Below the pieces are notes generated by a model. That model saw nothing but the letters and a program-made list of their open reading frames with translations, was not told where the DNA came from and searched no databases. Shown here piece after piece: positions 1 through 23,213 of a stretch of 23,213 bases of DNA. This DNA is from Tubiluchus corallicola (Eukaryota; Animalia; Priapulida). How positions within the stretch are numbered: the stretch's first letter is position 1; each line of letters begins with the position of its first letter. The position numbers and the translations under genes are program-made. The DNA lies in NCBI GenBank assembly GCA_030141605.1, contig JAQGDQ010000525.1, positions 130,360-153,572 of the forward strand. The letters run 5' to 3'.

Positions 1-325
1 GAGGATCTTGAAGATTTCACCATATGAAGAGCACCCGTATTGCTGTTTGCCACGAGGCAATTCTTAACACATTTAACAATAAGAACTCCATGCAGTGTCG
101 AGCAGATGTTTAACATTTAGAACGGTATATTATTTGCAGTTATACTTTTGCGATTAAAGGAACAATTCTTAAATTAGCATAATTCGAAACATTTATATTT
201 GTACTTATGCGGTATGGCAGTATTATATGTAATTATTTTGTTGTTGTTATTTCAGCCTGATCATTGCTGCAATATCATAAATAAACCACTTTGATTGATT
301 CAGCAAAAACTTCCATAGTTATTTA
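1..325 (+). repeat. 5' LTR of element 1 (truncated by window start)
   Basis: Matches 5262-5586 except 3 substitutions (positions 20, 53, 78). Identity ends after ...CCATAGTTATTTA (325). Confidence 0.95.
221..285 (+). promoter_or_regulatory. LTR promoter and poly(A) signals: TATA-like TATATGTAA (about 224), Inr-like TCAG (A254 putative +1), AATAAA (280-285)
   Basis: TATA-to-Inr spacing is about 30 nt and a canonical AATAAA lies downstream. The same motifs occur in the 3' LTR. TSS is inferred, not observed. Confidence 0.55.
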
Positions 326-338
326 TGATCAGGCGGAA
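326..338 (+). other. Primer-binding position with no tRNA PBS; complementary to the element's own LTR R region (putative self-priming site)
   Basis: TGATCAGGCGGAA does not begin TGG. It is the reverse complement of 251-263 TTCAGCCTGATCA at 12/13 positions. Confidence 0.7.
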
Positions 339-340
339 GA

Positions 341-2157
341 ATGCCAATTGTTCAATGCCCAATTACTGGCTGCAATTATGCAACAGAGGACTTGTCGGAG
401 GCTATCGTTCTCGAACTCCTGCAAATACATCGTGGTAGTCACACCACGAACACAGAGGCGGCACCACCCGCACATTCTGCTCCAACTGCGAAAATTGAAA
501 AAGTGAAAAGGCCTACTGTATCTGCCGCCGGTACCAGCGAAGAATGGGCATATTTTACCACACGTTGGCAAGAATACGTAGATGCCACTGGTATCACTGG
601 TAAAGACAGAGTAATTCAATTATTAGAATGTTGTGATGAAACGTTACGTAAAGATCTCACTCGTTCTGCTGGTGGCAGTCTCAGTGGCAAAGCAGAAGAT
701 GTAGTTCTTAATGCTATCAAAAAGCTCGCTGTTCGCGTTGAGAACACCATGGTGGCTCGTGTAGCATTGCATGATATGCGACAAGACCGTGAAGAACCTA
801 TCCGTGCATTCTGCGCCCGTCTACGAGGACAAGCCGGCATCTGCAATTATGAAGTGAAATGTCCCGAGTGCGACACCAGTGTCAGCTATACCAACGAAAT
901 AATTCGTGACTGTATCACACGCGGCATCGCAGATCCAGAAATCCAACTGGACATTCTCGGCGACAAAAATCAAGTCATGGAAATCGAAGAATTATTAATG
1001 CTAATTGAAAGCAGAGAATCTGGAAAAAGATCTGCTTCAAAACTCTTCGATACCCACAATGCTGAAGCAGTGCGTAGCTCATACAGACGAACAACAAGCA
1101 ATCTAGCCAAAGATAAAACATCTGAACCATGCAGCCACTGTGGAAGGCACGGTCATGGAAGTGGTTCTGATTTTCAATTACGACAGGACAAATGTCCAGC
1201 TTTCGGCAAAACCTGTACATATTGCAGTCGCAGAAACCATTTCGCTCCGGTATGTAGATCTAGAAATAAGCCAAAACATGCTGTTCCAGACCGTGACAGA
1301 GGTCGTGAACAATCCACCTCACTGGGTGAACAGGGAGCTGTGTTCGATACATTGTGTTCATTTACACCACACGTACATGAAAAAAATAGCCGTCGTACAG
1401 TTCCCCTTAGTCATCACCTATATGACCAGATGTGTAATAGTTGGCTACGCCAACCATCGAAGCCTCAACCATTTGTTACACTGCGCATGTCAATAAACCC
1501 AAGTGACTACACAGCCCTTGGTTTTCGCTGTGGCAGACAACCAAATTCTTGTATAATTTCAGCAATAGCAGACACCGGATGCCAGAGTTGCTTGTGCAGC
1601 CTTAAAATCCTCACTCGCATAGGCATATCAGAGCAACATCTCATACCTGTCACCATGCGCATGCAAGCTGCAAATGATCGTGGAATTAACATCCTTGGCG
1701 CTGCTATCCTAAGATTCACTGGTACATCTACGGCTGGCAAACAACTGGAAACCAGGCAGATCGTATATGTCACCGATACTTCAAACAAATTATACATTAG
1801 CCGTGAAGCTTGTATTGCACTCGGAATGATCACAGAAAGCTTTCCAAAGATTGGTGAGGTGTGCAACACGCTAGAGATATCATCATCAAACAGCACTTCA
1901 TCTGAGACACATGACATATCCAAACCCCAACAAAACAGTAGTGGTTTGACATCTGAGTGCCACTGTCCACGACGACAGCTGCCACCTACACCACCCTCCC
2001 AACTGCCATTTTCACCAACGCAAGAAAATTTGCCAAAACTGAGACAGTACCTCCTTGACACTTACAAGGCAAGCACATTCAACATATGTGAGCACCAACC
2101 TCTCCCACTTATGGAAGGGCCCCCTTTGAAACTCATGGTGAATTCTGATGCCACCCC
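341..2157 (+). CDS. gag: Gag-protease part of the Gag-Pol polyprotein (ORF1 nominally runs to 2239, but homology switches frame near 2154-2157)
   Basis: N-terminal C-x4-C...H-x3-H motif, capsid-like region ([13 protein letters not shown]; [17 protein letters not shown]), zinc knuckles CSHCGRHGH...C and [14 protein letters not shown], aspartic protease [10 protein letters not shown]. Confidence 0.92.
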
Positions 2158-5100
2158 GTGGCACATCACAACCCCATCCCAGTCGCCTTGCATTGGCAGA
2201 AACAAGTCAAAGCAGATATCGATCGCGACGTCCACCTAGGAGTCTTGGAACCTGTCCCCATTGGCGAACCTGTCACTTGGTGCCATCGAATGATTGTATG
2301 CCCCAAGAAAAACGGCCAACCCCGCAGAACTGTTGACTTTCAAGCCCTAAATGTTCATGCCACAAGAGAAACCCACCACACCCAGTCACCATTTCTGCAG
2401 GCAAGATCTGTACCCCCAAACATGAAGAAAACGGTACTTGATGCCTGGAATGGCTACCACAGTGTCCCAATCCGTACAGAGGACCGCCATCTTACTACGT
2501 TTATCACTCCGTGGGGCCGATATCGCTACAAAACAGCCCCACAGGGCTACATTGCTTCGGGTGATGGTTACTCAAGACGCTATGACGAGATTGTGTCACA
2601 CGTACCCCGTCACACAAAATGTATTGATGACACACTCCTCTGGTCACCTACAATCAAAGAAAGCTTTTTCCAGGCAATAGAATGGCTTGACATATGTGGC
2701 CGTCATGGCATCACTCTTAATCCTGACAAGTTCATCTTTGCTGAAGACACAGTTGAATTTGCAGGATTTGAAATTACACCCAATAGTGTCCGCCCTTGTC
2801 GGCGATATCTCCAAGCTATACTAAAATTTCCCACTCCAAAAAACATCACTGATGTTCGATCTTGGTTCGGCGTAATAAACCAAGTTAGTTATGCTTTCAG
2901 TATGGCTGACCGAATGCTTCCATTCCGTGCACTCCTGAAACCCGGGACCCCATTCACATGGAATGCACAACTAGATGAGATATTTAATGAGTCCAAGGCA
3001 CTCATTGTTCAGGAAATAGAAGACGGTGTTCGAATTTTCGATAAAACACGGCCGACATGCTTGGCCACTGATTGGTCAAAGTCAGGCATTGGCTTCTGGC
3101 TGCTCCAAAAACACTGCAAATGCCCCAAATCAACTCCTTTTTGTTGCCGTACTGGGTGGAAAATCACTCTTGTGGGAAGCCGATTCACCACACCAGCAGA
3201 ATCACGATATGCCCCAATTGAAGGTGAAGCCCTAGCAGTGGCAGATGCCCTTCAAAAAGCTAGGTACTTTGTCCTGGGTTGTACAAACCTGACTATTGCA
3301 GTGGACCACAAACCATTGCTCAAGATCTTCAGCAACAGATCCCTTGATGACATGCCCAACCCTCGCCTTAGGAATCTGAAGGAAAAGACGCTCCGTTTCA
3401 AATTCCAGGTCATACATGTCCCTGGAGCAAAACATCGAGCTGCAGATGGCATCTCTCGACACCCGTCTTGCCCTGGCCATGCTGGTGATATGCCTTTGCC
3501 TGACGACATTGCCACAATTCGACAGGACACTAATATTACCTTGCCAAACCTACCTACTTTCTTTTTGGAAGGTATTCGTTGTCAGGAAACGCCTTCAGAT
3601 TCCTTTGAGACATCCTTAATATGTTCAGCTGCCACAAAGCTTGCAAACTTCAAATCAGTGACATGGGATATGGTCCGAGTTGCTACAACAAGTGACACCA
3701 CCATGAACTTATTAAGAGACATCATAGAAACTAACGTGCCAGAAGCACGTCAGGAGTTCCCAGCTCCAATACGTGAGTATTACCAGTTCAGGGAACACCT
3801 CCACACCATCGATGGTGTTATTCTCTATAAAGAACGCATCGTTATTCCCCCATGCCTACGTGACACTGTGCTTTCATCACTCCATGCAGCACACCAAGGG
3901 GTCTCATCCATGATTTCTCGTGCAGAATCATCAGTATTCTGGCCAGGCATAACGACAGCCATATCGGCACTTCGAAGTCGTTGCCAAGAATGCAACCGTA
4001 TTGCACCCTCACAACCGGCAGCACCGCCCGTTCCCCCAGTTTTGCCGGTATACCCATTTCAGTGCATCTGCGCTGACTTCTTTCATTACAAGGGCGTCTA
4101 CTACCTCGTTGTTGTTGACCGTTATTCCAACTGGCCCATTGTCGAACGTTCTCCAATTGGGGCCACTGGTCTCATTGCCTGCCTCCGCCGAGTTTTTGTC
4201 ACTTACGGCATTGCTGAGGAACTGGCCTCAGATGGTGGCCCAGAATTTATTTCATTCCAAACACGCCAGTTTTTTTCAGACTGGGGTGTCCATCATCGTT
4301 TCTCTTCGGTTGCCTTTCCTCACAGCAATTGTAGAGCCGAATTAGGCGTTAAGACCGTTAAGCGCATGATTATGAATAATACTGGCCCCCAGGGAGACCT
4401 TAATACAGACTTGTTTCAACGAGCAATCCTGCAGTACAGAAACTGCCCAGACAGAGATACCAAACTCTCACCTGCCCAGTGTCTGTTTGGCCGCCCTATA
4501 CGAGACTTCATCCCTATAATACCCGGTCGCTACCAACCTCATAACACTTGGCAGGAATCACTACTAGCCCGAGAAGAAGCCTTGCGTAACAGACACATGA
4601 AAGCATCGGAACGGTGGACTGAACACACAAAACGCTTACCCCCACTAGTTGTTGGTGACAAGGTACATTTACAAAATCAGACTGGGAAACATCCTACCAA
4701 ATGGGACAAGTCTGGTATAGTCATTGAAGTCCGTCAATATGACCAATATGTCATCAAGGTGGATGGCTCGGGCAGAGTAACACTTCGGAATAGACGTTTT
4801 CTTCGGAAATATGAACCAATTCATCCACCACGCCCCAGTATCTCTATTGATACTGACCTTGCTTACAATGACAGATGCTTACCAGTTGAGAAACCTGCAA
4901 CATCAACCACTTTGCCACCTAAAACAAACCAACGCCCTAATAATTCAACCTTAGTGTCACCCAAACACATGGATTTCAAACAAACAGACAAACCTGTTGG
5001 ACCAGAGGACCCTCTCCCTAACCTCAGCACACCCTCACATATTCCACTAACTACCATACCAGACAATTCCAAACCAGTTGATAAGTCCATTGACCCTCCT

Positions 5101-5262
5101 TCGACTGCATCAGCTCCACCCAACCCAGTTATACCACTACGTCGTTCAACTCGGCAGAGGACAACTCCTCAGTGGCACAAAGACTTTGATATGTCTGGTA
5201 ATTTGGTCAGTTATCAGTCTTCGACGTATGCTACCTCCGTCCAAGACTTAGGGGGGGGATAG
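2158..5262 (+). CDS. pol: Pol: reverse transcriptase, RNase H and integrase
   Basis: RT motifs [19 protein letters not shown] and CIDD. RNase H TDWS...EGEALA...VDHKPL...ADGISR. Integrase HAAH...CQEC plus D (CADFF), D (ASDGG), E (RAELG). Stop TAG 5260-5262 overlaps the 3' LTR start. Confidence 0.95.
5250..5259 (+). other. Polypurine tract of element 1
   Basis: AGGGGGGGGA immediately 5' of the 3' LTR. Confidence 0.9.
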
Positions 5263-5586
5263 AGGATCTTGAAGATTTCAGCATATGAAGAGCACCCGTA
5301 TTGCTGTTTGCCAGGAGGCAATTCTTAACACATTTAACGATAAGAACTCCATGCAGTGTCGAGCAGATGTTTAACATTTAGAACGGTATATTATTTGCAG
5401 TTATACTTTTGCGATTAAAGGAACAATTCTTAAATTAGCATAATTCGAAACATTTATATTTGTACTTATGCGGTATGGCAGTATTATATGTAATTATTTT
5501 GTTGTTGTTATTTCAGCCTGATCATTGCTGCAATATCATAAATAAACCACTTTGATTGATTCAGCAAAAACTTCCATAGTTATTTA
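5260..5586 (+). repeat. 3' LTR of element 1 (327 bp, TA...TA termini)
   Basis: Starts right after the PPT with TAGAGG. Identity to the 5' LTR ends at TTATTTA 5586. The exact start is inferred from the PPT. Confidence 0.93.
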
Positions 5587-5688
5587 GAGGGTATGCATTC
5601 AATGTCACAGTCTGCGACAATGTTTGAAACCAGGTTGTGCTCCTATCAACGTTTAATTATGCAGTCCACTTTTAAATAGAGTTCTAAG

Positions 5689-6084
5689 TAGGGATGAGCA
5701 TTCTCAAGCAGAAAACTAACTCGAATCGAATCGAATTTGTGACTTTCGAATTCGAAACGAACCGAATTTCAGTATTTCGAATCCGAATCGAATACGAATT
5801 GAGTTTGAAAGATGTTCGAACAAGTTTTCGAACCACTAGTAAAAAGTGGTCTTACAAAGATTACTTGATTTTGTTCTGCAGTAAAACCGCTATTAGTTTA
5901 CTAAAAATTTTGCACAGAAATCACAGCTAAATTGAACTAATTGCGTGACGTTTCAAATGTTTTAATGATAAAGAACATAAGTGGCTGAAGTGCTGAATTA
6001 CTCGAATCTATAATTTTAGCTTCGAATCGAATTCGATCTAAAAAACTCGTTCGAACAAATTCGAACGTTCGATGCTCACCCCTA
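5689..6084. mobile_element. Non-autonomous hAT-like DNA transposon (MITE), about 396 bp
   Basis: TIR TAGGGATGAGCAT / ATGCTCACCCCTA (12/13). Dense subterminal TCGAA repeats at both ends. Flanks GTTCTAAG / GTTCAACT give only a degenerate 8-bp TSD. Confidence 0.75.
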
Positions 6085-6540: not shown

Positions 6541-6897
6541 GTAGGTAAATTGGCAAGGTAAAAATTGCACAGGAAAAAATTGCACATTAAAAATGGCACA
6601 AATGGAAAAGTTGGTAAAAATCGCGCATGTAACAATGGCGCAGCAACAATGGCACAGGAACAATGGCAGAAATGGAAAAGTTGGTAAAAAGCGCGCCGGT
6701 GACAATGGCACAGGAACAACGGCATACGAAAAATGGCAAGGTAAAATGGCAAGGTAAAAATGGCGCAGGAAAAAAATGCACAGAATAATAGCACAGGAAA
6801 AATGACACAGTAAAATATACCACACGAAAAAATGGCACAAATAGGAAAGTAGGTAAAATGGCACACGGAAAAAAATGGCACAGAAAAAATTGCACAC
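6541..6897 (-). repeat. Degenerate 13-15 bp tandem array (AAAAATGGCACAGG-type); left arm of a foldback-like element
   Basis: Repeated aaaaatggcac/aaggt units; reverse complement of the array at 8041-8536. Confidence 0.8.
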
Positions 6898-6954
6898 TTA
6901 GTAAAATATGAGTTTAGGGTTAGGGTTGGGGGGGGGATAATTATTCTAGTTATT

Positions 6955-7982
6955 TTTACCTCTGCCAATGAAGTCATGCTTCAACACAGTTTGTTTGTTT
7001 AGTTAGTGAGTGGCGCACCCTGGTGGGTGAGTCAGCGACATTTTACCAATTGGTAAAAACATTTTAAATAATTAAAAATTTTCTTTTCTAGTTACATAAG
7101 TCTTTCCAGGAGGTAATCAAAATGCTAAGTAATATAGATTTGCATGGAAAGTTTTTTGGGACATAATTTAACATTTCCTTTTCTTCCCCTGATTTACGTT
7201 TGCGTAGTGACGTCATGTAATTACGACAACAGTATTGCGGGAGATTTAAAATGAAAACAAACAAAAATTCCTTGCAACGCGAGTACGATATACGGATAGA
7301 ATTGCTGCAAAATAATATAATTTTTTAAGGTGATTTTTCTGAAACCAGTTCAGGAACCCCTTTTCTTGTCCTTTAATCTTTACTGGATTTGGATGCCTTT
7401 GTGTGCAATAGCAGTAAGAGTGTTACGCAAAAATTACCCAACAGATTTCCACGAAACTTTGTGGAGAAAGCGAGTATTGGCTGCCAAAATTGACGTTTTT
7501 TCGACAATAAAGCACTTCGTGGAGGTCTACGAAGGGGTGTTTAGTATTATCTGGACTATGACAAACAACTACGAGTTAGTTCCGGGTTCCATTTCGAGAA
7601 ATTCTTGCTTGAAAATCTGTGTCCCGCCGTCTACACCCTTTGCTTATTAATGTGTGTAGCCTAGTAAGCTGACTTTTATGTAAATACGTATATATGTCAA
7701 CCTGCTACAATTGCCAAAATTAATGGTTAAAAAGGGTAGAGAAACGAGATGTGTTTACAAGTATAAACACCAATTATAAACATTATTGATCACAATTCTA
7801 TTTAATGAACAAAATATTATTTAGTCTTTAGCTGTTGTATATAATGCTAGTACAGGTACATTTTGTGTGTTTGCTTGTTTATCTTTCTTTTACATTTTTT
7901 TAATCAAAAGAATAAGACGAATAAGTTTAGGATTGTTCGGCTTTAGCAGAAATCTGCTTTCTACTGAGCGCATTCTAGTTTT
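6955..7982 (+). mobile_element. Degenerate HINE/Helentron-like non-autonomous element, interrupted by another repeat
   Basis: 5' TTACCTCTGCCAA followed by a (GTTT)n tract. Degenerate inverted copy TTAGCAGAAAT at 7943-7953, then a hairpin-like GCTTTCTACTGAGCGC and TCTAGTTTT end. Layout recalls DINE-1/HINE elements. Confidence 0.5.
7008..7503 (+). repeat. Interspersed repeat, copy A (probable DNA transposon fragment; may extend to about 7642)
   Basis: Aligns in direct orientation with 15633-16130, roughly 80-85% by eye (shared CTGATTTACGTTTGCG, TTTAATCTTTACTGGATTTGG, CCACGAAACTTTGTGGAGAA). Confidence 0.85.
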
Positions 7983-8040: not shown

Positions 8041-8536
8041 GTGCCATTTTTCCTGTACCATTTTTACCTGTGCCATTTTACCATGCCATTTTCCTTGTGC
8101 CATTTTTACCTGTGCCAATTTACCTTGCCATTTTTCCTGTTCCATTTTTACCTGTGCCATTTTACCATGCCATTTTCCTTATGCCATTTTTACCTGTGCA
8201 ATTTTACCATGCCATTTTTCCTGTACCATTTTTACCTGTGCCAATTTACCTTGCCATTTTTCCTGTAGCATTTGCACCTGTGCGATTTTACCTTGTCATT
8301 TTTCCTGTACCATTTTTACCTGTGCCAATTTACCTTGCCATTTTTCCTGTAGCATTTTTACCTGTGCCATTTTACCATGCCATTTTTCCTGTAGCATTTT
8401 ACCTGTGCCAATTTACCATGCCATTTTTCCTGTAGCATTTTTACATGTGCCATTTTACCATGCCATTTTTCCTGTAGCATTTTTATCTGTGCCATTTTAC
8501 CATGCAATTTTCCTTGTGCCATTTTTACCGCGCACC
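8041..8536 (+). repeat. Tandem array of alternating 13-15 bp units (TGTGCCATTTTTACC / ATGCCATTTTTCC); right arm of the foldback-like element
   Basis: More than 30 units in a higher-order period of about 43 bp; inverse of 6541-6897. Confidence 0.88.
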
Positions 8537-9393: not shown

Positions 9394-10468
9394 CCAATAA
9401 GATTTCCTTAACGTACTGATAGCTTTGTACTTGAACTAAAACAGTAGCAGAAATTTCTTACCAACGTCATGGGAGCTTAGATAGTCTGCAAGGAGAAACA
9501 TGAACTGCTCTTGTCCAAAAAATAATTTGATAGCCGAATCCTAGCTGACTTTCATTTTAGATTATTAAACCAGTTTTATCTCAAATTTTACGAAAGTTGT
9601 AGAGACAGTTTTGCAATTAAAAATAGTACTAAAATAGTAATAATAAGTATTGCTGAAAGGATTCATTACATGTCCTGTAACTAGCACAACATTGCCTGAT
9701 TAGTTCTAACTGCGCGCTAAAACGCAGAATTATTAATCTCCCTATGAGCTTGGGTTTTCATAGCATCAATTGTCTGCGCTTGTACAAGTTAAATGCTTTA
9801 AGTACTGTCAATCGAGCTAAGCCGACATGAGCGTATCGATCCAGAACATCTCAAAGACGATTAACTGGATTGATCCCGACTCTAGTTAGTTCAGCTCTGG
9901 AATTAACAAGCTCTCGCTCGTCTGGGTTTGTGTACACAGGCGAAATTGTTCAACAACCATTTCCAAATAGAGAAACAAATGTTTGTACACTTATTAAAAC
10001 GTGCTGCCGTGTCTTTGCATCGGTGAATTTATTGTGTGTTTCGCCTTTGTTAAATTTTTAGCAGAAATTTTTAGTTTTTAATAAATAAGAAAGGAAAGTT
10101 TAAAGATAGAAACTTATTTAGATATTTACTGTTTTGCCGGTAGAGGACGTTAAAAGATATGTCTTACGTACGCGATGCTCTTATGTAGTACTAGTCTACT
10201 GCTCCGAGTAGCTGCTTCAGTCAGCAATTAATTTGCTCGTACGTAAAGCCTAACATATTTCACACTAGAAGGAGAGAGAAAGGGCGTGTTTTTAATTAAT
10301 TATCATCCTCTTTTAAAAGCAGTGATGTAGTTAATCAACTTAGCAGACGACGTGTTAACTATTTAACATAACAGTTACTGAAAAGCGTTGAATCATTTTC
10401 GAAAAGAACTCATTTTGCTCCATAAAGTTAATAGTGTTTATTGTTTATAAACGTCGCTTTAGACGCTG

Positions 10469-11176
10469 TTGTTTTTCACGTGTCTTGTCCATTGTTATTC
10501 ACGTGTCTTGTCCATTGTTTTTCACGTGTCTTGTCCGTTGATTTTCACATGTCTTGTCCGTTGATTTTCACGTGTCTTGTCCGCTGTTTTTCACGTGTCT
10601 TGTCCGTTGTTTTTCACGTGTCTTATCCGTTGTTTTTCACGTGTCTTGTCCGTTGTTTTTCACGTGTCTTGTCCGTTGTTTTTCACGTGTCTTATCCGTT
10701 GTTTTTCACGTGTCTTGTCCGTTGTTTTTCACGTGTCTTATCCGTTGTTTTTCACGTGTCTTGTCCGCTGTTTTTCACGTGTCTTGTCCGTTGTTTTTCA
10801 CATGTCTTGTCCGTTGTTTTTCACGTGTCTTGTCCATTGTTTTTCACGTGTCTTGTCGGTTGTTTTTCACGTGTCTTGTCGGTTGTTTTTCACGTGTCTT
10901 GTCCGTTGTTTTTTACGTGTCTTGTCCGTTGTTTTTCACGTGTCTTGTCCATTGTTTTTCACGTGTCTTGTCCGTTGTTTTTTACGTGTCTTGTCCGTTG
11001 TTTTTCACGTGTCTTGTCCATTGTTTTTCACGTGTCTTGTCCGTTCTTTTTTACGTGTCTTGTCCGTTGTTTTTCACGTGTCTTGTCCGTTGTTTTTCAC
11101 GTGTCTTGTCCGTTGTTTTTCACATGTCTTGTCCGTTGTTTTTCACGTGTCTTGTCCGTTGGTTTTCACGTGTCTT
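10469..11176. repeat. Minisatellite, 23-bp unit TTGTTTTTCACGTGTCTTGTCCG, about 31 copies
   Basis: 708 bp / 23 = about 31 head-to-tail units with no spacers. Translated ORFs repeat every 23 aa (3 units). Confidence 0.96.
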
Positions 11177-15632: not shown

Positions 15633-16130
15633 CAGTGGTGCACACTGGGTATGGCCATGCAGTGACACCTTACAGCGAATATTTTAAATTATTAAGAATT
15701 TTCTTTTCCTCTTACGTAATTTTTTCAAGCAGGTAATCGAAATGCTAAGTAATGTAGATTTGCATGAAAAGTTTTTTAGGACGTAATTAAACATTTCCTT
15801 TTCTTCCCCTGATTTACGTTTGCGTGGTGACGTCATGTAATGGCGACTTCGGAACAGTATTGCGGGAGATTTAAAACAAAAACAAACATAAATGCCTTTC
15901 AACGCGAGTGCGATATGTGCATGAAAATGCTGCAAAGTAATATAATTTTTAAGACGATTTTTCTGCAGCCTACTTCAGGTACCCTTTTCTTGTCCTTTAA
16001 TCTTTACTGGATTTGGTTGCCTTTGTGTGCAATAGCAGTAAGCCTGTTGCGCAAAAATTACCCAACAGATTTCCACGAAACTTTGTGGAGAAGGCGGGTA
16101 TTGGCTGCCAAAATTGACGTTTTTTTTTCG
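15633..16130 (+). repeat. Interspersed repeat, copy B (homologous to 7008-7503), CAGTGG hAT-like start
   Basis: Direct alignment with copy A. Confidence 0.85.
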
Positions 16131-16989: not shown

Positions 16990-18203
16990 TGTGACGCCGT
17001 GTAATAACTAAATCAGGACGTTAAGAAATCAGAGTACTGTATTCAGGGTTCTCGAGCGTTTCCGTCACTTTTATATGCTAAATCTACAGGATAATCATTC
17101 ATTTGTGTAGGCTACGTGAATCCGTGTCACTGATGAAACACTTGTGTGCACGTGCAAATTATTTAATCAGAACGAAAACGGAACTAAAAGCTAATATTTA
17201 GATTTAGAATTTAATCAGTAAAACAACAATAGCAAATTAAATTGATAACAATTTCGAACAATACCTAATTCCCCCAAAGTAACGTTGGCCGGCTACGCTT
17301 CTGTCTCTCATCAGGCTTCCGGATCTATCAACCACGCTCTTGAGTCTCCAACCATACGGCATCGGCTTTTCATCTCCAGCAGTCAGCCACGTCCTCGCCA
17401 GCAACTCTTTGCCAATGGTCACCAATCCAGCCTCTGCATGGACCACGCTTTAAAACTGCTCCAGCAATCCAGCGGTTGAACTCGTACCTGGTTGCCTCGG
17501 GATTGAACTCTCGCCTGGTTGACTCGGACTTCCAGTAATAAAGCCAGATATCGTCCTTTTGCAGGGTGACAAACAGAACCTTCAGTTCAGACAAACAGAC
17601 AGACCATTGGTCCAAGTAGAACTGGTCCACGACTGGTTTTCCACTACTATTCAACGAGAATTTTAGTCCTATTCTGCAGGTAGAAATATGGTTACCAAAC
17701 ACTTGCTTCTTGGAATGTCAAGACAGTGTCATCACAGCAAACAACGAATAAACAAAAGTAGACAAAACCATTGCCTTTATGACAAATCATCTCACTGCAT
17801 ACGAGTACCATTAAAGACAGGTTCACACCAAACTTGGTGTTCAGCCATATAAAATAACCTCAGGATGTGGACTAACCAGCAAAACTCCACCACCCTGTAA
17901 CTTTGACAGTCAGAACATAACTAGTGTAAAACACGAACTCTGTAGTAAGATCCCAAAACAGGTTGAAGCCATTTGGTATTCGAATTTTCAGGTAACCTAA
18001 TTACAGGTAAGCAGAGAAATAAGCGGCCAGAGCCATCTAGTGTCAAAATCTTACAAAAACACACAATGTAATATAAGTTTAAATAAACAGTGCAATAAAT
18101 CAATCAGGTACTTAGATCATTATTTATGCGCACGCAACAACATACGAAAGATATATCAAAATAGGTGTTGCGACAATGATGGGTGGTATAACCGATCATC
18201 ACA
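16990..18203 (-). repeat. 3' LTR of element 2 (about 1214 bp)
   Basis: TGTGACG...CATCACA terminal inverted repeat (6/7); aligns with 22034-23213. An alternative boundary at 18208 cannot be excluded. Confidence 0.9.
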
Positions 18204-18208
18204 TAGCA

Positions 18209-18221
18209 TCTCTCTCCTTTT
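18209..18221 (-). other. Polypurine tract of element 2
   Basis: - strand AAAAGGAGAGAGA just upstream of the 3' LTR. Confidence 0.8.
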
Positions 18222-18480
18222 AAAACTCTGAAGGAGTTTTCACAACATAGCGACACCTATATTGAAACGATTGAAGAAAATAAAAGCTAAACAATGATTT
18301 GCTAACTAAATGGGCTATCTTAATTACTCTGAGAAGCAACTTCAATCAATACTGATACAAAATAAATCTACGAATAACACAATAAACGACTTTACTTCTG
18401 CCATTTCACTTTTAAAGGCTTTATGTTGTTTAATTAAAAAAACAATTTCTTCGTATAAAACTATCAAAATTAGGCAAAAT

Positions 18481-21414
18481 TTATAGGCGTGAAAGTGCAT
18501 CCGCCACAACATTCATTCGTCCCGGAATATTCTCCACCGTGTAAGAGTATTCCTGGAGAATGAGCAACCAGTGACACAACCGGCGGTTATTACGCTTAAT
18601 GCGAGGAAGGGCCAACAAGCTGCGCTGGTCAGTTCGGATAGTAAAATGCCGCCCTTCCAGGAAGTATCTCAACTTCTCCACACAGTAAACAACTGCTAAA
18701 CACTCCACTTCTACCACACTGTAATTACGCTCAGTAACAGTTAATTTTCTGCTGAGGTCTGTTATAGGTAGTTCGCCATGTTCACTTTGTTCTTGGGATA
18801 GTACCCCACCTACACCACTCAAAGATGCATCAGTAGTCAGCATGAAAGGCTTCATGAAATCTGGAGAGTGCAATACAGTGTCGGAGCCAAGGCAGTCTTG
18901 CAATTCCACAAAACTCCGCTCGCAGGCTTCTGTCCACTCAACTTTGGTTGGAGCGCTTTTCTCAAGTAGCTGAAAAAGAGCAGCAGCCTTGGTACTAAAC
19001 ATAGGAATGAACCTACGGTAGAAGCCAACAAGTCCCAAGTAGGCCCGTACTTGTTTCTTGTTTTGTGGACGTGGGAAGTTGTGTATGCGTAGAATCTTGT
19101 TGGGTTGTGGCCAAGTATATTCCTGCAGTACTCGCTTAGTAGTTTTTCCAATGCCTAAATGTCCAGCCATCTTATTATCATGTGCCAGGGAGAGCACCTC
19201 CAGTCTCCTTGTCTTAGGCACAACCAGTAGTTCTCGTGGTTCTAGGCTAGGACGCTCACATGCCAGGTAATAAAGTACTCCTTCACGAAGATAGTAGCCT
19301 TTGCCTTCTTTCCTCACAATTTCTTCAGTGCGTGCATTGTCGCGTAAGTTCCTTAAAGTTACATCATCTACTTGTTCTTGGTGTAACTGTGATTTACTGA
19401 GCACAGTTAGGTGCATTTGGTTTTGCTTTGACTCGTGCTCAGTCAGTGGAGGTGCTTTGATTCTGTCTTGCAAAAACTCTTGTTGGAGGGTCTTGTCTCT
19501 TTTCTCAAGGTTTTGCAGTTTCGCAGCTTTACTGCGTGTAACAACTAATGCCGTGTGCAGCTTGTCACCACTACTGTTTTCATCCTGCTTCATAGCATGC
19601 TTTTTAAATTGGCAGGAGGAATCCATGTTGGCCACAGTAGCTGTTGAAGCTGGTTTCGGTACACACTGGAAGTTCTTACTCCTCTTTGCCGGGAATGGAG
19701 TAACTGCCGTCCGAAAGTCATTACCAAGTAAGAAGTCAACTGGAAGGTCACCAGAGACAGCCACTGTCAAATACCCACTGACCATCGGACTTTCAACCTC
19801 CGCAATAGCCATGCGTACTTCCTTGGAATCTCCATGTACACACTTAATCGTCCTGGTTGACTCATCAACATATTGCTCTGGCCTTACCAAATCTGGGTGA
19901 ACAAGGCTAGTGCATGCCCCAGTGTCGCGCATGCATTTCACATTCTTGCCATTCACAGATGCCCAGCAGCAATATTCATCTTCAGAAGATGCAATAATGT
20001 TGCGCAACTTCTTTGTGGTTTTTCTTGAACCACCTTCCTGGGTCTTCTTAGCATCACCTTTAGCTAAAAAATTCCGACCCATCGTGCTTCTGCCTTTCCC
20101 GGTGGCTTCAGCACCTGCCATGCTTCTTCTGCATTGATTTCTTTTATGTCCCAACTCGCCGCAGGAATAGCACTTCACATTAGATCCACTATACGTGCTT
20201 CTTCCTCTTGCTAAGCTACTACCATCGTGCATTGGCTGCTTGAATCCTTTCTTAAATGTGTGAGGTTGCATGACTTTTAGGCCACCCTGTATCGACATCA
20301 CAGATGCTTGGTACAAGTCTGCTTTTTCCACAACATCATCGAAGGAATGAAGATCTTGCCTCCGGACCCATTCACACATGTCACGTGACATCAGTGTTAA
20401 GACTTGTTCCTTACAGACCAATTCCACAACTTTATCTACAGAGTCAGCATCTTCTGCATTTCTGTACTCATTGTAGGCACGAACAAGTCTTCTGCCAACT
20501 TGCTGAAAAGTCTCATTGGCCCTCTTTTTTATAGCACGAAAACGTTTCAAGTAGCTCTCGCTGGTTAATACATATGCTGCCAAAAGTGCTTTCTTCACAG
20601 CATCGTAGTTGCTCATTTGCTCAGGAGGTATTTGGTGAAAAGCAATGGAAGCTTTCCCGGTGAGTGCAGGCCCTAAAGATGCTGCATATACGTCCTGAGG
20701 AAGCTTATTTGCAGCTGCAGTTGATTCAAACTGACTTAAGAAATCGTCAATGTCTTCAGCGTTTTCATCAAAGACCCTCATTTTGATACGCTGGATGGGT
20801 GCATGCAATTGCGGGTTAACAGGAGGGGAAGGGTTTGCGACCTGTAATAAAGTGGGTGCGATCTCAATTCGTGCAAGCTCGGCACGCAATTTTTCAAGCT
20901 CAACCCGTTCCTGATGTTCAAGTTGCTTAATACGTAACTCTTTGTCCATCTGCATTTGCATCTCCATCTGCTTGACAGCTCGACGCTCTTCGCTGCGTAG
21001 CTTTTCCAGTGTAATCATAACTGAATACCTCTCTGAGGGGGGTAATTGCTGCATTCCGTCAGTAATGTCATCTACCATAAATGACAAGTCGGGCGGAGGT
21101 GTGTGTTCTAACCTCGTTGCCACAGTTGGCTTCCTTTTCACGCCACCTGAAATAGGGTTCACGGGAGTTGCTGCATTTAAATTAGTTTCAACATATGTAC
21201 CCCCGTCCAGGTCCGCATCACCAAGGCCTTGAATTGCTTGTGTTAGCGCAGGTTGCGTCATATTCAAAGGAAGCTGAGCTTGTAGGATAGCAGCTATTAA
21301 AACAGGTTTAGTCGCTGTTGAGGCAACTGTGATCCCGCATTCAGCTATAATTTCTTTTAGCTGTGACACTTTTAAAATATTTAACTCGTTTTCAGTGTAT
21401 GCGTTTGCTGCCAT
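18481..21414 (-). CDS. gag-pol: Gag-protease-(truncated integrase)-(RT thumb)-RNase H fusion, 977 aa
   Basis: SAP/HeH-like N-terminus, coiled coil, capsid/SCAN-like region, CYSCGELGHKRNQC knuckle, protease RDTGA, IN N-terminal AHD...GHLG...WP joined directly to RT thumb PRPQNKKQVRAYLGLVGFYRRFIP, RNase H TDAS/E/TD/ADALSR. No YxDD and no IN DDE core. Confidence 0.93.
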   Translation of the reverse strand: MAANAYTENELNILKVSQLKEIIAECGITVASTATKPVLIAAILQAQLPLNMTQPALTQAIQGLGDADLDGGTYVETNLNAATPVNPISGGVKRKPTVATRLEHTPPPDLSFMVDDITDGMQQLPPSERYSVMITLEKLRSEERRAVKQMEMQMQMDKELRIKQLEHQERVELEKLRAELARIEIAPTLLQVANPSPPVNPQLHAPIQRIKMRVFDENAEDIDDFLSQFESTAAANKLPQDVYAASLGPALTGKASIAFHQIPPEQMSNYDAVKKALLAAYVLTSESYLKRFRAIKKRANETFQQVGRRLVRAYNEYRNAEDADSVDKVVELVCKEQVLTLMSRDMCEWVRRQDLHSFDDVVEKADLYQASVMSIQGGLKVMQPHTFKKGFKQPMHDGSSLARGRSTYSGSNVKCYSCGELGHKRNQCRRSMAGAEATGKGRSTMGRNFLAKGDAKKTQEGGSRKTTKKLRNIIASSEDEYCCWASVNGKNVKCMRDTGACTSLVHPDLVRPEQYVDESTRTIKCVHGDSKEVRMAIAEVESPMVSGYLTVAVSGDLPVDFLLGNDFRTAVTPFPAKRSKNFQCVPKPASTATVANMDSSCQFKKHAMKQDENSSGDKLHTALVVTRSKAAKLQNLEKRDKTLQQEFLQDRIKAPPLTEHESKQNQMHLTVLSKSQLHQEQVDDVTLRNLRDNARTEEIVRKEGKGYYLREGVLYYLACERPSLEPRELLVVPKTRRLEVLSLAHDNKMAGHLGIGKTTKRVLQEYTWPQPNKILRIHNFPRPQNKKQVRAYLGLVGFYRRFIPMFSTKAAALFQLLEKSAPTKVEWTEACERSFVELQDCLGSDTVLHSPDFMKPFMLTTDASLSGVGGVLSQEQSEHGELPITDLSRKLTVTERNYSVVEVECLAVVYCVEKLRYFLEGRHFTIRTDQRSLLALPRIKRNNRRLCHWLLILQEYSYTVENIPGRMNVVADALSRL

Positions 21415-22012
21415 GGTAATTTACCGTTTCGTTTTATTATTAATTTAATAAGGTTAATACAGCAGTCAAATACTATGTGCAATTGTATTTACCTTATAGT
21501 ATTAGATTCTATGTAATTAATTTTTTTGCAAAGTATTTATTTGCGTTTTGTTTCGTTTTAACTTTGCTATTACACTTGTGAAAATTTATTCACCACTCAC
21601 GTGGTTTCTTTTACTCTTCTCTCACTCTGTACACAAGCAAATTGCTCTGGTTACATACAGCTAGTACTGTGCAAAATAAGTCCCGAACCGAACAGGAAGT
21701 TACAAGCCGTTCAATATATTACTAGGGCTCACCAATTCGTAAACAAGCTTTTGCGTCGCATGCACTTCACAGTCAGACAATGTGACCTAGTTTACCTATA
21801 GTTCGAAATCTCCTACTGCAATGAAACTACTAACTATTTGCGCAGAGAAATTTATACCTACAGCACGGTCAACGCAAGTGTCAAAAGTTCTAAGCTTACT
21901 CAGTAGAAATATTATATTATCAGTTCTGCAAAGGGCAGAGATGCTATTTTTTTCAACAATAAACAGAATAAATAATCTGCACAGCGGTTTCATTCAGTGG
22001 CAGGCCTTAATT

Positions 22013-22030
22013 ATCCCACCGCTGCCACCA
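22013..22030 (-). other. Primer binding site complementary to tRNA-Leu (AAG/TAG type)
   Basis: - strand TGGTGGCAGCGGTGGGAT is the complement of the tRNA-Leu 3' end ATCCCACCGCTGCCA-CCA (18 nt, from memory of metazoan tRNA-Leu); 3 nt from the LTR. Confidence 0.92.
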
Positions 22031-22033
22031 AAT

Positions 22034-23213
22034 TGTGACGCCGTGTAATAATTAAATCAGGATGTTAAGAAATCAGAGTACTGTGTTCAGGGTTCTCGAG
22101 CGTTTCCGTCACTTTTATATGCTAAATCTACAGGATAATCATTTATTTGTGTAGGCTACGTGAATCCGTGTCACTGGTGAAACACTTGTGTGCACGTGCA
22201 AATTATTTAATCAGAACGACAACGGAACTAAAAGCTAATATTTAGATTTAGAATTTAATCAGTAAAACAACAATAGCAAATTAAATTGATAACAATTTCC
22301 AACAATACCTAATTCCCCCAAAAGTAACGTTGGCCGGTTACGCTTCTGTCTCTCATCAGGCTTTTGGATCTATCAACCACGCTCTTGAGTCTCCAACCAT
22401 ACCGCATCAGCTTTTCATCTCCAGTAGTCAGCCACGTCCTCGCCAGCAACTCTTTGCCAAACGTCACCAATCCAGCCTCTGCATGGACAACGCTTTAAAA
22501 GTGCTCTAGCAATCCAGCGGTTGAACTCGTACCTGGTTGCCTCGGGCTTGAACTCTTGCCTGGTTGCCTCAGACTCCCAGATATCGTTCTTTTGCAGGGT
22601 GACAAACAGAACCTTCAGCTCAGACAAACAGACAGACCATGGGTCCAGGTAGAACTGGTCCTCGACTAGTTTTCCACTACTATTCAGCGAGAATTTGAGT
22701 CCTATTCTGCAGGTAAACATATGGTTACCAAACACTTGCTTCTTGGAATGTCAAGACAGTGTCATCACAGCAAACAACGAATAAACTAAAGCAGACAAAA
22801 CCATTGTCTTTGTAATAAATCATCTCACTGCATACGAGTACCATTAAAGACAGGTTCACACCAAACTTGGTGTTCAGTCATATAAAATAACCACAGGATG
22901 TGGACTAACCAGCAAAACTCCACCACCCTGTAACGTTGACAGTCAGAACATATCTAGTGTAAAACACGAACTCTGTAGTAAGATCCCAAAACAGGTTGAA
23001 GCCATTTGGTATTCGAATTTTCAGGTAACCTAATTACAGTTAAGCAGAGAAATAAGCGGCCAGAGCCATCTGGTGTCAAAATCTTACAAAAAACACACAA
23101 TGTAATATAAATTTAAATAAACAGTGCAATAAATCAATAAAGTAATTAGATCATTATTTATGCACACACAACAACATATGAAAGATATATCAAAATAGGT
23201 GTTGCGACAATGA
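22034..23213 (-). repeat. 5' LTR of element 2 (truncated by window end)
   Basis: Aligns with 16990-18179; about 52 substitutions and 3 indels counted by eye. Confidence 0.93.

Follow-up and report, generated by a model that had tools for sequence, protein, structure and literature searches.

A Ty3/gypsy retrotransposon occupying positions 1-5586 of the window (the whole stretch of 23,213 nucleotides analysed here) probably primes reverse transcription with a piece of its own RNA, in the manner of Tf1: the 5' segment 255-263 would fold back on positions 326-334, be cut near A263 and prime the minus strand without a tRNA. We give this reading a probability of about 0.78, and are highly confident that the element self-primes in some form. 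The pairing of the long terminal repeat (LTR) with the primer-binding site (PBS) from which both judgements start is, judging from sequence comparison across families, a real and lineage-wide feature. Self-priming has been demonstrated in the fission-yeast element Tf1, while for related chromoviruses and some groups of plant Copia elements it has been predicted; the mechanism itself is known, and what would be new is its presence in this non-chromovirus animal clade.

The LTRs, the polypurine tract and the order protease, reverse transcriptase (RT), RNase H and integrase identify the element as a Ty3/gypsy LTR retrotransposon (Table 1). It is young; its two LTRs show 3 mismatches over window positions 1-325 and diverge from 326 on. 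Since the 3' LTR starts with TA, the 5' LTR is taken to begin two bases before the window. The LTR end at 325 is backed by other insertions, in which contigs leave into unlike flanks (2, 8 and 6 contigs in runs X1, X2 and X3, runs X2-X4 being one sample), and exact 5-bp duplications are found at 7 related insertions. The gag ATG lies 15 nt past the LTR, and the acidic motifs of RNase H are present. The window copy is frameshifted at ~2150-2240; its relatives carry one gag-pol ORF of 1500-1690 aa. No tRNA genes were found in the window, and one doubtful call was made among 19 loci. A search against Rfam returned two weak miRNA-like matches, far under threshold and outside the finding, and no ribozyme; the viral contigs scanned yielded nothing.

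Table 1. Features of the Ty3/gypsy element, in window coordinates.
Feature	Position	Strand	Remarks
5' LTR	1..325	+	ends ...TTTA; first two bases TA would fall just 5' of the window
Weak TATA-like run, candidate only	221..232	+	TATA not enriched in relatives
T-rich tract with TTTCAG at its end	236..255	+	likely initiator marking the RNA 5' end; also splice-acceptor-like
Predicted self-primer segment	255..263 (251-263 with one mismatch)	+	predicted 3' end A263
Inner helix adjoining the primer helix, 5' strand	265..269	+	predicted fold
AATAAA, likely poly(A) signal	280..285	+	would be used in the 3' LTR
Inner helix adjoining the primer helix, 3' strand	301..305	+	predicted fold
Putative PBS, complement of 255-263	326..334 (to 338 with one mismatch)	+	without TGG
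gag-protease frame	341..2239	+	N-terminal Cys motif, two zinc knuckles, DTG protease
pol frame	2149..5262	+	RT (CIDD), RNase H, integrase; without chromodomain
Polypurine tract touching the 3' LTR	5250..5259	+
3' LTR, 327 bp, TA...TA	5260..5586	+	99% identity to the 5' LTR
Likely right copy of a 5-bp target-site duplication	5587..5591	+	left copy beyond the window; based on 7 related insertions

Directly 3' of the 5' LTR the sequence is TGATCAGGCGGAA and not TGG, as the sequence-only reading had it; the LTR end on which that observation depends is confirmed. The same reading had proposed that this site pairs perfectly with 255-263 and, over a longer stretch, with LTR bases 251-263. We count 9 of 9 pairs between 326-334 and 255-263 (10 of 10 counting T264:A325), and 12 of 13 between 326-338 and 251-263, where A254, facing G335, is the sole unpaired base. 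A 9-nt complement starting at 326 was obtained in none of 300 shuffles of the LTR. The fold of 250-345 has a z of -3.66, and in the folding ensemble the probability across six trial 5' ends is 0.87-0.89 for pair 263:326 and 0.99-1.0 for pair 266:304. Extra helices, and switching between them, had also been put forward. They do exist as sequence (274-284 with 319-329, 11 of 11 pairs; 264-269 with 301-306), but switching is unsupported: in the ensemble the first is present at a probability of at most 0.01 (pair 279:324), and a hairpin at 263-273 at 0.0.

Relatives were collected with the Gag-protease alignment as query, which gave the best 80 of 237 metagenome loci and 14 loci from genome records. 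From these, 75 sequences (window included) with at least 140 nt before gag were grouped into 47 families, four loci without a usable gag start being excluded. The named relatives (~50% Gag identity, 74-79% RT-RNase H identity) come from sea anemones, a gorgonian, a mussel, an oyster, a clam, a scallop and sea urchins, that is, from cnidarians, molluscs and echinoderms. LTRs of the lineage are 88-331 nt long, start with TA, and end with TA in 37/40 and with GA in 3/40.

In a first test, LTR ends were fixed independently by LTR-LTR comparison; two of them were shortened, by 1 and 3 nt, so as to end on a true match. All 12 families carry a perfect complement of their own LTR, 9-17 nt long, from the first post-LTR base; the observed length was reached by 0/300 shuffles in every family, and sites 20-60 nt further downstream gave just 2-8 nt. 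Pairing of a site with its own LTR averages 12.8 nt, against 4.0 with the LTR of another family, and the 4/132 cross-family combinations that reach at least 9 nt all stem from two family pairs with near-identical sites. In a second test the boundary was placed blind by a weight matrix built on LTR ends. The threshold of 9 nt was then reached in 22 of 36 held-out families, versus 3 of 280 control (next-best) sites. Overall the helix is found in 40 of the 47 families, 7 of these 40 having been rescued non-blind (a wrong site had been picked, or the helix holds a G-U or a mismatch). Of the seven families without it, one has too short a contig and several have suffered decay or deletion, while L005 and L073 lack an explanation. 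Further copies within families reach 9 nt in 16 cases out of 27 and stay below in 11. The helix measures ~9 to 18 nt across the lineage, and its register is tied to the first post-LTR base in every helix-bearing family. Leader length ranges from 15 to 267 nt with the helix position unmoved. The 40 sites amount to 36 different 10-mers, none of which starts with TGG, a triplet found inside the helix in 3 of the 40.

The sequence-only reading had suggested looking for covariation between the 5' end of R and the PBS in related families, and compensatory changes are indeed found. All four Watson-Crick pair types are seen at helix positions 4, 6, 7 and 9, and a comparison of 20 disjoint pairs of families (true sisters in some cases only, and from families chosen for pairing) counts 69 compensated changes versus 3 one-sided. 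The helix runs one pair into the LTR (T:A, 40/40) and then halts, at T:T in 36, T:G in 3 and C:T in 1. G-U pairs account for 3 of 480 primer-helix pairs versus 81 of 589 predicted inner-loop pairs, again in families chosen for pairing. When G-U was allowed in the blind search just one extra family reached 9 nt, and the G-U gap is therefore not accounted for by having selected perfect runs. In one family of 11 copies, three have a changed LTR letter: L020 and L021 have a PBS changed to match, and L019 keeps the old PBS; L038 of the same family shows a PBS change without an LTR match. An LTR-first order, as seen in the single intermediate copy L019, is what would be expected if the retained primer were copied into the PBS. 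A PBS rewritten from the LTR segment in each cycle would leave the helix Watson-Crick while its sequence drifts.

A third test drew on five genome records holding host contigs, which gave 40 regions around other RT matches, 33 of them with an LTR pair. Two are members of the lineage (74% and 54% RT identity, the former being the same insertion as L083), and they self-pair over 15 and 11 nt. Among the 31 outgroup elements (at most 35% identity, some near-duplicates and some with uncertain ends) none has a self-complement of at least 9 nt, the maximum being 7 nt; in 22 of them TGG lies close to where the LTR ends. L128, the nearest outgroup with readable ends (34% RT identity), has TG...CA termini and a TGG site. 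In a quick, unrooted RT-RNase H tree of 44 rows, from which ten near-duplicates were excluded and which holds no named chromovirus or Mag reference, the 9 self-pairing rows fall on one side of a branch with an SH-aLRT of 100. The lineage occupies its own long branch, and several TGG-bearing lineages stand between it and the RTs that carry the Ty3-type MPFGL..AP motif. On a poorly resolved gag tree (43/47 rows, bootstrap unsettled) the short- and long-leader groups cluster without being clean clades. The central proposal of the sequence-only reading, tRNA-free self-priming in a non-chromovirus Gypsy lineage, is thus supported by a conserved, covarying LTR-PBS complementarity that is absent from the 31 outgroup elements. 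Since the signature occurs in a non-chromovirus animal clade beside tRNA-primed relatives, we argue that tRNA-free priming arose more than once, and self-priming was likely gained independently in this clade. As a separate observation, the loci L081-L092 and L125-L164 (G001-G005) lie in bacterial genome records rich in animal LTR retrotransposons with their flanks, which indicates that host contigs are present in these records; a bacterial label is also found on some of this lineage's database proteins.

Chromovirus integrases carry a chromodomain or a GPY/F module, and chromoviruses usually have one CCHC knuckle. None of 10 proteins has a chromodomain, and none of 61 full-length relatives shows the GPY/F pattern; all 61 carry a CCHC knuckle and 44 a preceding one, the first knuckle having a spacer of 10-12 residues. 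The RT motif is CIDD or CVDD in 112/117, for which the literature search gave no match, and the RT-RNase H region reaches 92.6 bits when scored against Ty3. This score and the distance from Ty3-type RTs speak, indirectly, against a grouping with Tf1, sushi or Ty3. Among 1.84 billion proteins searched, the closest outsiders with a name are 'K02A2.6-like' (4 of the 10 looked up, with one 'hypothetical' and five unnamed), a label that presumably denotes Mag-type elements. Judged by these motifs, the lineage, which combines TA...TA ends with a CxDD RT, appears to be Mag-like and outside the chromoviruses, where 'Mag' stands for resemblance by motifs and nearest named relatives. Mag elements are described as ~5.5 kb long with a single gag-pol ORF and short LTRs (PMC11117352) and two CCHC-type knuckles (PMC2577118). 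These traits are shared between our lineage and the A, B and C clades, MolGy3, MolGy11, PolGy1 and LGF7-9 of Lamellibrachia, as are the 'K02A2.6-like' neighbours and the hosts among cnidarians, molluscs and echinoderms. Among the elements recorded in a survey of Lamellibrachia are 13 Gypsy elements that have TATA ends, lengths of 5.1-5.6 kb and LTRs of 117-191 bp (PMC8220671). The LTRs of Mag A and C are reported to end TG...CA (PMC3601003), whereas those of this lineage are mostly TA...TA. The earlier designation as Mag-like and non-chromovirus fits the missing chromodomain and GPY/F, the two knuckles and the single ORF; the termini differ from those of Mag A and C.

The inner helix adjoining the primer helix is strong in the window and only weakly conserved across this lineage, whereas adjoining R-U5 structure and inner helices are important in Tf1-type self-priming. 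Across families the inner helices have a mean run of 4.85 versus 4.42 in shuffles, weakly above, and the mean inner-fold z is -0.55. An AAAT(A/G)G motif occurs in 22 of 40, with a hairpin following in 14 of these 22. The predicted folds of L013 and L063 pair AATAAA with a TTTTAT close to the end of the LTR, which may be a hairpin that masks the poly(A) signal.

In Tf1, the RNA's first 11 bases pair with the PBS, and cleavage by RNase H falls between bases 11 and 12 (PMC7175516, PMC4600332). The likeness extends to Tf1/Tf2 of Schizosaccharomyces pombe, Tj1 of S. japonicus and the Tf1/sushi chromoviruses, in all of which the PBS is described as complementing a segment of the element's own 5' LTR. 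Unlike Tf1/sushi, our lineage has neither chromodomain nor GPY/F, and shows two zinc knuckles, the CxDD RT and TA...TA ends; its helix, in contrast to that of Tf1, varies in length, and cleavage is here only predicted. For the plant TAR Copia elements (Houba, Osr-1) and the Tcn1 chromoviruses, self-priming was likewise predicted from LTR complementarity near the LTR end, of at least 10 bp and starting 0-5 nt past the LTR (PMC6317226), but these belong to another superfamily or to a chromovirus clade, and to plant hosts. The fungal GalEa Copia elements, with a conserved hairpin site, and the bivalve biv-TRIM are also described as lacking a tRNA PBS (PMC5445492, PMC6934838); their hairpin is entirely downstream of the LTR and conserved in sequence, whereas here the partner lies within the LTR and covaries. 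Self-priming thus appears in print for Tf1/Tf2/Tj1, the Tf1/sushi group, Tcn1 and TAR Copia, and the available parts of the literature searched (including PMC8556966, PMC6238403, PMC13524379 and PMC12440569; Repbase, GyDB and subscription journals were outside the scope) hold no report of it in a Mag-like animal lineage.

By analogy with Tf1, transcription would start at or beside TTTCAG (250-255), and the predicted primer segment, likely about the first ten bases of the element RNA, would fold back onto the PBS. The element's own RNase H would then cut near A263, whose 3'-OH would be extended across 325-264 in minus-strand synthesis. The retained primer would be copied during plus-strand synthesis, and each cycle would rewrite the PBS from the LTR segment, a last step suggested by our data rather than by Tf1.

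As to the 5' end of the RNA, a TATA-like box had been read at about 224; the run is there, but it is weak, and neither TATA motifs nor branch points are (significantly) enriched upstream of the helix in relatives. The initiator-like TCAG is likewise present (252-255), but the proposed +1 at 254 is uncertain, as A254 is unpaired and the helix starts at that A in just 1 of the 20 window-like families. These 20 short-leader families, the window among them, have a T-rich tract and TTNYAG upstream of the helix, which starts one to three positions past the A of YAG in 12 families, further downstream in 5 and four positions before it in 2; in the window and L033, pairing extends 3-4 nt upstream of this A. 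The motif therefore seems to mark the 5' limit. Of the 11 long-leader families, 9 have a helix that begins exactly at the A of an initiator-like TCAGTT, giving a predicted primer of 13-14 nt. Long-leader families (e.g. L016, L081, L082, L043) also have a recurrent (GA)(T/C)CCTTACC ~20-12 nt upstream of TCAGTT, possibly a core-promoter element.

The same motif could be read in another way, namely that the element self-primes with something other than a capped 5' end: TTTCAG would be a splice acceptor (of an LTR intron or of a host read-through RNA), or the primer would be a 3' R copy or a second RNA molecule. We consider this unlikely, though it is the strongest of the competing explanations. 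In the short-leader families TTNYAG follows a T-rich tract with T at -5 in 20/20 and a pyrimidine at -3 in 18/20 (the AG having been chosen by pyrimidine content), and the helix usually starts after the AG. However, AG is not depleted in what would be an AG-free zone (24 versus 26 expected), and the branch-point enrichment is not significant. A first test for a splice-junction primer was blank. In a refined donor test, L079 alone gains pairs from an in-LTR donor, 6 of them, which favours splicing but is at about chance level; the window gains 2 nt only, and the donors of L006 and L033 are outside the LTR. The LTRs of L010 and L051 (109 and 88 nt) have just 34-36 nt upstream of the helix (U3), so that their promoter must be mostly internal or borrowed; this scarcity of promoter room speaks for a spliced primer, yet such U3s are too small for an LTR intron. 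The leader tail after the helix is moreover not shared, and plus-strand synthesis would find no natural stop on a long spliced leader. A wider scenario, which we regard as more doubtful still, is that this large animal Gypsy clade, found in cnidarians, molluscs and echinoderms, gave up tRNA priming separately from Tf1 and rewrites its site each cycle, while in the window-like subgroup a splice acceptor where U3 meets R supplies the primer RNA and lets near-promoterless LTRs ride host transcripts. Separately, 3 of the 40 families (L013, L062, L078) have a 9-10 nt copy of the PBS in U3, 39-118 nt upstream of the primer segment, which in the 3' LTR might base-pair with the second copy of the primer and so hide it.

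It is very improbable that the helix is instead a regulatory RNA structure, acting in translation, packaging or poly(A) control, with priming by another route. A start codon so close to the LTR, whose pairing depends on the 5' end chosen, would suit such a role, as would the A(A/T)TAAA between primer and LTR end, within the loop, in 14 of 20 short-leader families. Yet a regulatory helix would not account for a register fixed at the first post-LTR base, for a position unmoved by the changes in leader length, or for the near absence of G-U pairs, which are normal in structural helices, and no other primer site is visible. Priming at 326 by a host tRNA half or an internal tRNA fragment, with the LTR complement as a by-product, is the least probable explanation: half-tRNA primers exist in Copia groups (PMC6317226, PMC10886601) and 30 of 40 sites start with TGA, but the many different 10-mers are each matched by their own LTR, single-letter changes within one family are compensated in the LTR, and the tRNA-primed neighbours retain TGG without an LTR complement.

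If the Tf1-like reading is right, the tRNA-primed neighbours of this lineage make a switch of priming mode comparable across a tree, and the drifting, self-rewritten site is a natural set of 36 variants for RNase H recognition. Such elements would also be expected to escape tRNA fragments that target the PBS. Because of the TA...TA ends and the missing tRNA site, default LTR finders would under-annotate the clade.

The rest of the window holds further repeats. A second Gypsy element lies on the minus strand at 16990-23213, with LTRs of ~1190 bp that are 94% identical and end with CA, the 5' LTR being cut by the window end, and with a TGG primer site. Its 979-aa frame contains SCAN, a zinc knuckle and protease, after which an integrase zinc finger precedes RNase H, as in Gmr1-like elements; it lacks the core of the integrase and the greater part of the RT. 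Just downstream of the 3' LTR of the first element, 5700-6000 is a high-copy repeat with short TCGAA-rich units. The tandem arrays at 6543-6900 and 8042-8529 have related units of 14, 42 and 70 nt on opposite strands and could represent the two termini of a DNA element with inverted repeats, and a 23-bp tandem array with 31 copies (94% matches) occupies 10468-11176. Finally, a dispersed repeat of ~440 bp is present in two copies (7058-7501 and 15678-16125), 87-96% identical.
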